Source of the DNA: Shigella phage Z31
Sequence record: MN655999
Length of the DNA stretch: 64,000 nt
Strand: one strand, 5' to 3'
Shown in pieces: positions 57,292-58,328 of this stretch. The notes under the pieces are model-generated. The model had not been told where the DNA came from, did no database searches, and was given only the letters and a program-made list of their open reading frames with translations. A program made the position numbers and the translations under genes. Each line of letters begins with the position of its first letter. The stretch's first letter is position 1.

Positions 57292-57696
57292 ATGATTAAA
57301 GCAAAGACTTACCCAGACTTCAAAGAGTTTGTAAAGGGTTTTGTTGCAAACGTAAAGGCTGGTAAGAGATATGATTTTAGAACATATCAAGAGGCTATTT
57401 TACCACTTACCTATAGCTCATATTGGCCTGAAGCTGATATTGCAGAGGTTGAGAAGTTTGACTACAAACCAGACTACAAAGTTCCTTTTAGTGATGAGTT
57501 GCTTTACAGCATTGGCGCTCAAATGAGAACTTCTGACTTCTTCATGGACTTACAATATGCAATCATCAATGGTAAAGATGTTGATACAGTTTATTGTGAA
57601 TGGCTGGCAAGAGTTAAGCCCTTCTCAATGCTGAATGCTAAGCTAAAGGATGCTATCAAGCCACCATCAATCACTCAGCAACCAATCAAACAGTAA
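57292..57696 (+). CDS. hypothetical protein ending in an Ig-like A-strand motif (PPSITQQP)
   Basis: ORF track 134 aa. Confidence 0.5.
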   Translation: MIKAKTYPDFKEFVKGFVANVKAGKRYDFRTYQEAILPLTYSSYWPEADIAEVEKFDYKPDYKVPFSDELLYSIGAQMRTSDFFMDLQYAIINGKDVDTVYCEWLARVKPFSMLNAKLKDAIKPPSITQQPIKQ

Positions 57697-57864
57697 ATGA
57701 AGAAGGATATTTCTGATATTCCTTCGGCTACAGAAGCTACCTATAGCAAGTCTGGTGCACTGCCAGCAGATGCAGGTTCATACACCTGTGTAGTGACTGG
57801 TGCAGGTGGCTCTGTAACATCTAATGCGGCAACAGTTACAGTTAACCCAGCAGGGGAGGCATAA
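57697..57864 (+). pseudogene. Ig-like domain remnant (55 codons) in frame with upstream gene, separated by a single TAA
   Basis: ...GSYTCVVTGAGGSVTSNAATVTVNP resembles Ig-like F/G strands; no SD before its ATG; stop overlaps endolysin start. Confidence 0.35.
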
Positions 57865-58328
57865 TGCAAATCTCAAGAAAAGGTTTAGAAGCTATTAAGT
57901 TCTTTGAAGGTCTGAAGTTAGAGGCTTACGAAGACTCTGCCGGAATCCCGACAATCGGGTATGGTACAATCCGTATTGACGGAAAACCTGTTAAGATGGG
58001 TATGAAAATTACTGCTGAACAAGCTGAACAGTATCTTCTCGCAGATGTTGAGAAGTTTGTTGCAGCAGTGAACAAAGCTATCAAGGTTCCAACTTCTCAG
58101 AATGAGTTTGATGCACTTGTTAGTGAAACATACAACATCGGTATCACAGCTATGCAGGATTCTACATTTATCAAGCGCCACAACGCTGGTAACAAGGTAG
58201 GTTGTGCAGAAGCTATGCAGTGGTGGAACAAGGTTACGGTCAAAGGTAAGAAGGTCACTTCAAACGGCCTGAAAAACAGACGCAGAATGGAAGCTGACAT
58301 TTATCTTGACAGTGTATACCCAAAGTAG
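57864..58328 (+). CDS. endolysin, T4-lysozyme-like (GH24 muramidase)
   Basis: 154 aa; EGLKLEAYEDSAGIPTIGYG matches the T4 e lysozyme catalytic region. Confidence 0.85.
   Translation: MQISRKGLEAIKFFEGLKLEAYEDSAGIPTIGYGTIRIDGKPVKMGMKITAEQAEQYLLADVEKFVAAVNKAIKVPTSQNEFDALVSETYNIGITAMQDSTFIKRHNAGNKVGCAEAMQWWNKVTVKGKKVTSNGLKNRRRMEADIYLDSVYPK

Follow-up and report, generated by a model that had tools for sequence, protein, structure and literature searches.

A decayed hex-dec capsid-decoration allele directly upstream of the endolysin gene in Shigella phage Z31

Immediately upstream of the endolysin gene of Shigella phage Z31 (sequence record MN655999), a member of Felixounavirus with a genome of 89,355 bp, two open reading frames lie in one frame with a single stop codon between them, and Ig-like sequence is found on both sides of that stop. 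Such an arrangement raises the question of whether a formerly continuous gene has been broken, or whether the stop codon is read through and an Ig module is thereby appended to the upstream product. The locus was analyzed in a stretch of 64,000 nucleotides of this genome (the window), to which all coordinates refer; a literature search returned no descriptive paper on Z31. The two reading frames and their parts are as follows.

57292..57696, plus strand: truncated hex-dec ORF of 134 aa (15.6 kDa), with ATG at 57292 and TAA at 57694-57696
57292-57645, plus strand: capsid-binding domain, residues 1-~118 of the 134-aa ORF, followed by a linker and then by Ig strand A
57661-57684, plus strand: Ig strand A (PPSITQQP), followed by the out-of-frame codons I K Q and TAA
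57697..57864, plus strand: remnant ORF of 55 codons, corresponding to Ig strands C'-G, with ATG at 57697 and TAA at 57862-57864

The 134-aa ORF terminates with ...PPSITQQPIKQ (sequence end KPPSITQQPIKQ, then TAA), and the remnant, MKKDISDIPSATEATYSKSGALPADAGSYTCVVTGAGGSVTSNAATVTVNPAGEA, continues in the same frame behind this single stop. The stop directly abuts the restart codon (TAAATG at 57694-57699), as is characteristic of termination-reinitiation sites, and the sequence contains no purine-rich run that could serve as a Shine-Dalgarno element within 15 nt 5' of the ATG at 57697. The positions, the solitary TAA, the 55-codon continuation and the missing Shine-Dalgarno element, all of them described in the original prediction, were thus confirmed. 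The Ig-like character attributed there to the locus also proved to reflect homology and not chance, as the remnant aligns with the last ~50 residues of every one of the four Ig repeats in PDB chain 9ncf_S (E 1.4e-70). The two Z31 proteins were retrieved by exact-protein look-up as QHB48990.1 and QHB48991.1, and the GenBank labels of the ORFs are 'immunoglobulin I-set domain protein' and 'putative tail protein'.

The window matched 248 phage records, nearly all of Felixounavirus, at 90-96% identity. At the same position, directly 5' of the endolysin gene, the related records carry a single ORF of 210, 294 or 460 aa, which is usually annotated as a 'tail protein'. Two of the orthologues are chains of solved virion structures, namely gp124 of Bas63 (bas63_0124, 460 aa; 9ncf_S) and gp20 of Sf14 (372 aa; 9c2d_S), and the 134-aa ORF matched residues 1-134 of the former (E 8.2e-86) and residues 1-131 of the latter (E 1.5e-73). 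These proteins represent Hex-Dec of Ounavirinae, a Hoc-like decoration protein at the centers of facet-edge hexamers with one to four Ig-like domains, their number varying across the genus (PMC12609058; PMC11821841). Mass spectrometry identified Sf14 gp20 as a virion component, and its Arg79 and Arg107 form salt bridges to the major capsid protein (PMC11821841); both arginines are invariant in our alignment of 28 protein sequences, Z31 included. The Z31 locus therefore shares with Hex-Dec genes the homologous capsid-binding domain, Arg79 and Arg107, and the stop/start overlap with the endolysin gene directly downstream, while it lacks at least one complete Ig-like domain C-terminal to the capsid-binding domain. 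Hence, the locus represents, in degenerate form, hex-dec, the Hoc-like gene of Felixounavirus for decoration of the capsid at hexamer centers, and the Z31 gene is a truncated or pseudogenized allele and not a functional full-length member.

To localize the lesion, the DNA of the window was aligned with four intact alleles that encode a single Ig domain (CECAV_041, NBEco005, P0008/L008 and P0009/L009), of which P0008/L008 and P0009/L009 are the closest. Identical gaps of 4 nt and 56 nt were found in the window relative to all four. Three elements define the damaged region.

57679..57690, plus strand: CAAN tetranucleotide tract of 3 units (CAAC CAAT CAAA), the site of the 4-nt deletion
57683..57698, plus strand: ancestral island between the two deletions, now out of frame, as delimited by the DNA alignments
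57699..57702, plus strand: junction of the 56-nt deletion, at a 4-nt GAAG microhomology

In the window the tract reads CAG CAAC CAAT CAAA CAG, whereas the four fetched intact alleles with a recognizable tract have 4 units, CAG CAAC CAAC CAA(T/A) CAAA CAG. At the second gap, the left ancestral flank is ...AAATGAAG/GTGG... (in a longer, alternative rendering ...GTAAATGAAG/GTGG...) and the right one is ...CAATG/GAAGAAGGAT..., the slash marking the junction. As neither 4 nor 56 is a multiple of three, the region between the deletions is misread: the ancestral AAT CAA ACA GTA AAT GAA (N Q T V N E) is now read as ATC AAA CAG TAA ATG A. The deletions total 60 nt, i.e., 20 codons, so that the downstream frame is restored, and the sum of 134, 1 and 55 codons gives 190 against the 210 codons of the intact gene. 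Two deletions thus produce mechanically the TAA, the abutting ATG and the same-frame continuation, all three. The ATG-initiated ORF of 55 codons was made by the 56-nt deletion alone, which brought it into the frame of an ATG that was already there. According to these alignments, the stop arose by two deletions, with no nonsense substitution at the locus. The earlier supposition of a recent nonsense mutation that had split an Ig-domain protein was consequently right in spirit, since the gene is split and the lesion is young, but wrong in mechanism, the TAA being ancestral sequence read out of frame between the 4-nt and the 56-nt deletions.

The source of decay is a microhomology-mediated deletion combined with tetranucleotide slippage. 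In the Z31 lineage, a deletion of 56 nt between GAAG microhomologies took strands A', B and C from the sole Ig domain, slippage in the adjacent CAAN tract dropped 4 nt, and the intervening stretch is now misread, the ancestral GTA AAT G becoming TAA ATG. Just 3' of the junction (57702-57725), two further Z31-specific changes, GGT>ATT and GAC>GAT, lengthen an imperfect inverted repeat, GAAGGATAT...ATATTCCTTC, so that a small hairpin results; they may represent a templated quasi-palindrome mutation, for which changes on both arms are required, or a coincidence.

The extent of the loss was mapped on a predicted model of the intact P0008 protein, in which the Ig domain (residues ~124-206) has a pLDDT of ~95. 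The capsid-binding domain is modeled poorly there (pLDDT 33-56), and the solved structures and the corresponding papers were used for that domain instead. The modeled strands of the P0008 Ig domain are listed below.

Residues 126-129: strand A
Residues 134-137: strand A'
Residues 141-149: strand B
Residues 153-158: strand C
Residues 170-174: strand E
Residues 182-190: strand F
Residues 193-205: strand G

Missing in Z31 are the equivalents of P0008 residues 132-156, that is strands A' and B, most of strand C and the core Trp156 of the YQW motif. Taken alone, the remnant is predicted as an open sheet with a mean pLDDT of 70 and no residue at 90 or above, against ~95 for the same residues in the intact domain. 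Its Pfam matches stay below the cut-offs and cover the C-terminal parts of the profiles: 19.0 bits to Ig_2 (PF13895; cut-off 27; positions 42-79 of 79) and 18.2 bits to I-set (PF07679; cut-off 23.7; positions 62-86 of 90), while the intact orthologues carry the Ig_2 and I-set families among their precomputed database hits. According to the P0008 strand map, even full readthrough would give no Ig domain, because A', B, most of C and the core Trp are deleted.

Several other sequences carry the same lesion, all of them found by exact-protein look-up only. An ENA metagenome contig (L007) has the identical arrangement with 2 mismatches in 1,485 nt. Another one (L006; ENA ERZ24991165, 95x coverage) has the same arrangement and is identical to the window over 1.3 kb (56522-57822), belonging to a different lineage from 57823 on; its origin is either natural recombination, with a breakpoint that falls within the Ig remnant, or chimerism of the metagenome assembly. 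A 34.5-kb Logan contig (L010; SRR22121124) from a diverged lineage shares the 56-nt junction exactly; its identity is 95.2% in the capsid-binding domain and 91.6% in the endolysin gene, and it has an extra 104-aa ORF upstream. Its CAAN tract comprises 6 units (CAAC x3, CAAT x2, CAAA), and the locus is read as ...QQPTNQSIKQ TAA ATG KKDGSDIP.... The stop is restricted to sequences with the 56-nt deletion, and the junction was absent from 50,697 INPHARED phage genomes, from IMG/VR and from JGI metagenomes. Most likely, the 56-nt deletion arose once and is now found in several backgrounds, the tract having slipped to 3 or 6 units.

Frameshifted forms of hex-dec were also seen elsewhere, namely in phage vB_SflM_004 (P0045) and in a 109,375-nt record (P0025, a 209-aa NCBI protein). 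Four further candidates for independent truncation were set aside as probable assembly tips, two of them (P0007 and P0047) ending near contig ends and two (P0048 and P0030) lying on contigs of only 1,546 nt and 1,152 nt, respectively. Separately, the hex-dec product P0041 has a 5-residue tandem duplication (AEVTN AEVTN; alignment columns 51-55) in the capsid-binding domain, which is otherwise of invariant length.

As for the part of the gene that has survived, the capsid-binding domain differs from the intact alleles by 14-19 synonymous and 1-3 non-synonymous codon changes, and in the alignment with homologues it has no residue unique to Z31. The domain is thus intact and evolved under purifying selection. 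Relative to P0008, the remnant has 12 synonymous and 2 non-synonymous codon changes, and the only residues unique to the window lie at the lesion or next to it: I132, which is read out of frame, M136, located at the junction, and I140, due to GGT>ATT. Because the non-synonymous changes are few and the unique residues are confined to the vicinity of the lesion, the lesion is young relative to the divergence of the alleles. The predicted 134-aa product, comprising the capsid-binding domain and a short tail, should still bind hexamers and would display no Ig domain.

The remnant itself is probably a young pseudogene fragment without function. Termination-reinitiation at TAAATG may yield weak translation of this fragment, with no functional consequence. 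The remnant ORF is open in all four deletion-bearing sequences, which is expected of a young lesion and is no proof of neutrality; we infer that it is still open because little time has elapsed, and that its last ~15 nt hold the ribosome-binding site of the endolysin gene. Dispensability of Hex-Dec is plausible, and in a genome-wide knockout screen of Bas63, gp124 was more essential on E. coli S17-1 than on three other strains (PMC11482910). Considering all these data, we find it highly probable that Z31 carries a hex-dec allele decayed via two deletions, with the capsid-binding domain kept and the Ig domain destroyed.

The immediate surroundings of the locus comprise the following features.

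57108..57123, plus strand: terminator-like hairpin closing the upstream gene, with a GC-rich stem of 6 pairs and a T-rich tail, found on both strands
57853..57859, plus strand: Shine-Dalgarno sequence GGGGAGG of the endolysin gene, within the end of the remnant ORF and conserved in orthologues
57864..58328, plus strand: endolysin of 154 aa, T4-lysozyme-like (Phage_lysozyme PF00959, E 6.6e-41)
58338..58355, plus strand: intrinsic terminator-like hairpin 3' of the endolysin gene

The endolysin ATG at 57864 overlaps the stop of the remnant (TAATG), as it does in all orthologous loci, and the hairpin at 57108..57123 is likely the 5' boundary of a transcription unit of hex-dec and the endolysin gene. 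Between that upstream gene and hex-dec there is a non-coding gap of 192 nt (57100-57291), and similar gaps are seen in P54 and L009. An ORF of 104-123 aa that overlaps the hex-dec start is found in Bas63, NBEco005, L008, L010 and L011, which constitutes a small-gene presence/absence polymorphism.

Downstream of the endolysin gene, a 132-aa ORF (58380-58778, plus strand) has 70-77% DNA identity to every fetched relative against 92-98% for its neighbors, and no Pfam match was obtained for it; either hypervariability or exchange of the gene, or a separate allele in Z31, would account for this divergence. The next ORF (58771-59181, plus strand; 136 aa), also with no Pfam match, contains a run of nine acidic residues (EEEEEEEEQE), and its counterpart in P54 (L001, 2482-2611) bears the doubtful-looking annotation 'D-alanyl-D-alanine carboxypeptidase'. 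The taxonomy line of the latter record (L001; PV390658.1, Escherichia phage vB_EcoM_P54) reads Straboviridae / Tequatrovirus and is probably wrong, as the 88-kb genome is ~95% identical at a Felixounavirus locus. On the minus strand, 48509-53855 is occupied by 26 tRNA genes (ARAGORN; 24 of them reach the Rfam threshold), with two genes each for Met, Gln, Lys, Arg and Ser and three for Leu, and all the anticodons are sense ones. Beside this cluster lie, on the same strand, genes of a 471-aa protein (54021-55436) with DUF2828, DUF7788 and a weak vWA match (MIDAS-like DVSSSM), and of a DUF5681 protein (55518-55889), the pair being conserved in L009-L011.

Other explanations of the arrangement were weighed against decay. 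Loss of the Ig domain could have been adaptive, e.g., by reducing adhesion to non-host surfaces or mucus, by escape from antibodies or by evasion of a host system that recognizes the Ig array. Consistent with that, four independent assemblies, representing at least two genomic backgrounds, carry the deletion allele (one contig at 95x coverage), further disrupted alleles exist, and the number of Ig repeats ranges from 1 to 4 within the genus (PMC12609058). The allele is nevertheless rare, being found in none of the 248 other phage records, and the same effect should be attainable by deleting the domain cleanly in frame, with no wreck left behind. We consider adaptive loss unlikely, though conceivable.

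Alternatively, the abutment of TAA and ATG might itself have been selected, in that termination-reinitiation would carry ribosomes on to the endolysin start and thus avoid polarity after the loss of the Ig domain. The directly adjacent stop and start of TAAATG, the overlap of the remnant end with the endolysin start (TAATG) and the recurrence of the same frame class in two diverged lineages, by tract changes of -4 nt and +8 nt, would fit such selection. The endolysin gene, however, has its own strong GGGGAGG site, around which no significant RNA structure was predicted (z = -0.32), the remnant ORF is due to the 56-nt deletion alone, and any frame class of the tract stops the upstream ORF within ~20 nt of the ATG. 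Besides, tract counts of 3 and 6 both belong to the frame class that gives TAA/ATG, a coincidence with a chance probability of 1/3 to 1/9. Selection for the abutment therefore seems improbable to us. The more specific proposal, that CAAN slippage after the loss of the Ig domain was selected independently in the two lineages (to 3 and to 6 units) as a protection of the endolysin gene from polarity, the tract acting as a slippage-prone tuning site between the capsid-binding and the Ig domains, is given slender credence. The CAAN tract was also considered as a reversible phase-variation switch and rejected, for no tract length restores the Ig domain once the 56 nt are lost.

Programmed readthrough at the TAA at 57694, adding the 55-aa Ig module in a fraction of translation events, was the other possibility raised in the original prediction, and it agrees with the common frame of the two ORFs, the single stop between them and a second ATG devoid of a Shine-Dalgarno sequence. 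A stop of this function would be expected to be conserved, but in the comparison with orthologues it was present in none of the 248 related records, which have one contiguous ORF instead, and the junction is likewise missing from the IMG/VR and JGI metagenomes. Nor would the joined product contain a whole module, as ~25 residues including strands A' and B, most of strand C and the core Trp are gone from the extension. None of the 26 tRNAs of the window is a suppressor, the predicted fold of the RNA 3' of the stop is no more stable than that of shuffled sequence (z = -0.62), and both the 55-aa remnant and the 196-aa ORF upstream likewise end in TAA. In enterobacteria, UAA leaks least among the stop codons, and the known case of phage readthrough, the A1 protein of Qbeta, uses UGA. 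Readthrough is thus extremely improbable, and the Z31 locus exemplifies ordinary gene decay and not stop-codon readthrough.

A sequencing or assembly artefact, such as collapse of Ig repeats, can be given hardly any weight, for although tandem Ig repeats are prone to misassembly and several truncated homologues do lie at the ends of short metagenome contigs (P0007, P0047), the junction is identical in the isolate genome and two metagenome assemblies, its 56-nt part recurs in a fourth, diverged contig, and the neighboring genes are of normal length. Repeat collapse in particular was rejected, as the deletion is out of register with the repeat unit.

Among the known systems, Bas63 gp124 and Sf14 gp20 (chain S of 9ncf and of 9c2d/9c3a) are the nearest to the Z31 protein, having a near-identical N-terminal capsid-binding domain encoded at the same place, in overlap with the endolysin gene. 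Described Hex-Dec proteins contain one to four complete Ig-like domains in one ORF (PMC12609058), whereas in Z31 the sole Ig domain is incomplete and severed by the stop, and the expected product is without Ig. Hoc of phage T4 resembles Hex-Dec as a monomer at hexamer centers in which a small capsid-binding domain is joined to several Ig-like domains in a row, and it is dispensable for growth (PMC10385173; PMC12609058). Its capsid-binding domain is, in contrast, C-terminal, topologically distinct and unrelated in sequence, which makes Hoc an analogue and not a member of the family (PMC12609058). The Ig domain of T5 pb10 (PDB 5lxk, 8zvi) is weakly matched by the remnant (E 1e-4), while its capsid-binding domain is unrelated and its gene is intact in T5. 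Phage structural proteins that acquire Ig-like domains through programmed frameshifting or readthrough were reportedly described by Fraser et al. in 2006/2007 (cited in PMC11482910). The likeness of Z31 to those proteins, an Ig module located 3' of a recoding-like signal, is superficial, since the locus has no conserved recoding site, slippery sequence or stimulatory structure, and the module is incomplete. A precedent for loss of Ig-like domains is provided by gp95 of CHB7, a homologue of Sf14 gp20 with multiple premature stops and several insertions and deletions relative to it (PMC11821841); two Ig-like domains are kept in CHB7 and none in Z31.

For annotation, these results mean that the gene should be designated as a capsid decoration gene, truncated in this phage, instead of a 'tail protein'. 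They also call for caution in reading an 'in-frame stop' as a sign of recoding, as such a pattern can stem from a pair of closely spaced deletions whose combined length restores the frame. With regard to the family, Z31 provides a naturally occurring 'zero-Ig' form of a Hoc-like decoration protein, for which the published range in the genus is one to four Ig domains, and its comparison with near-identical phages carrying intact alleles could probe the roles of the displayed Ig domains in adhesion, aggregation and host-dependent fitness.
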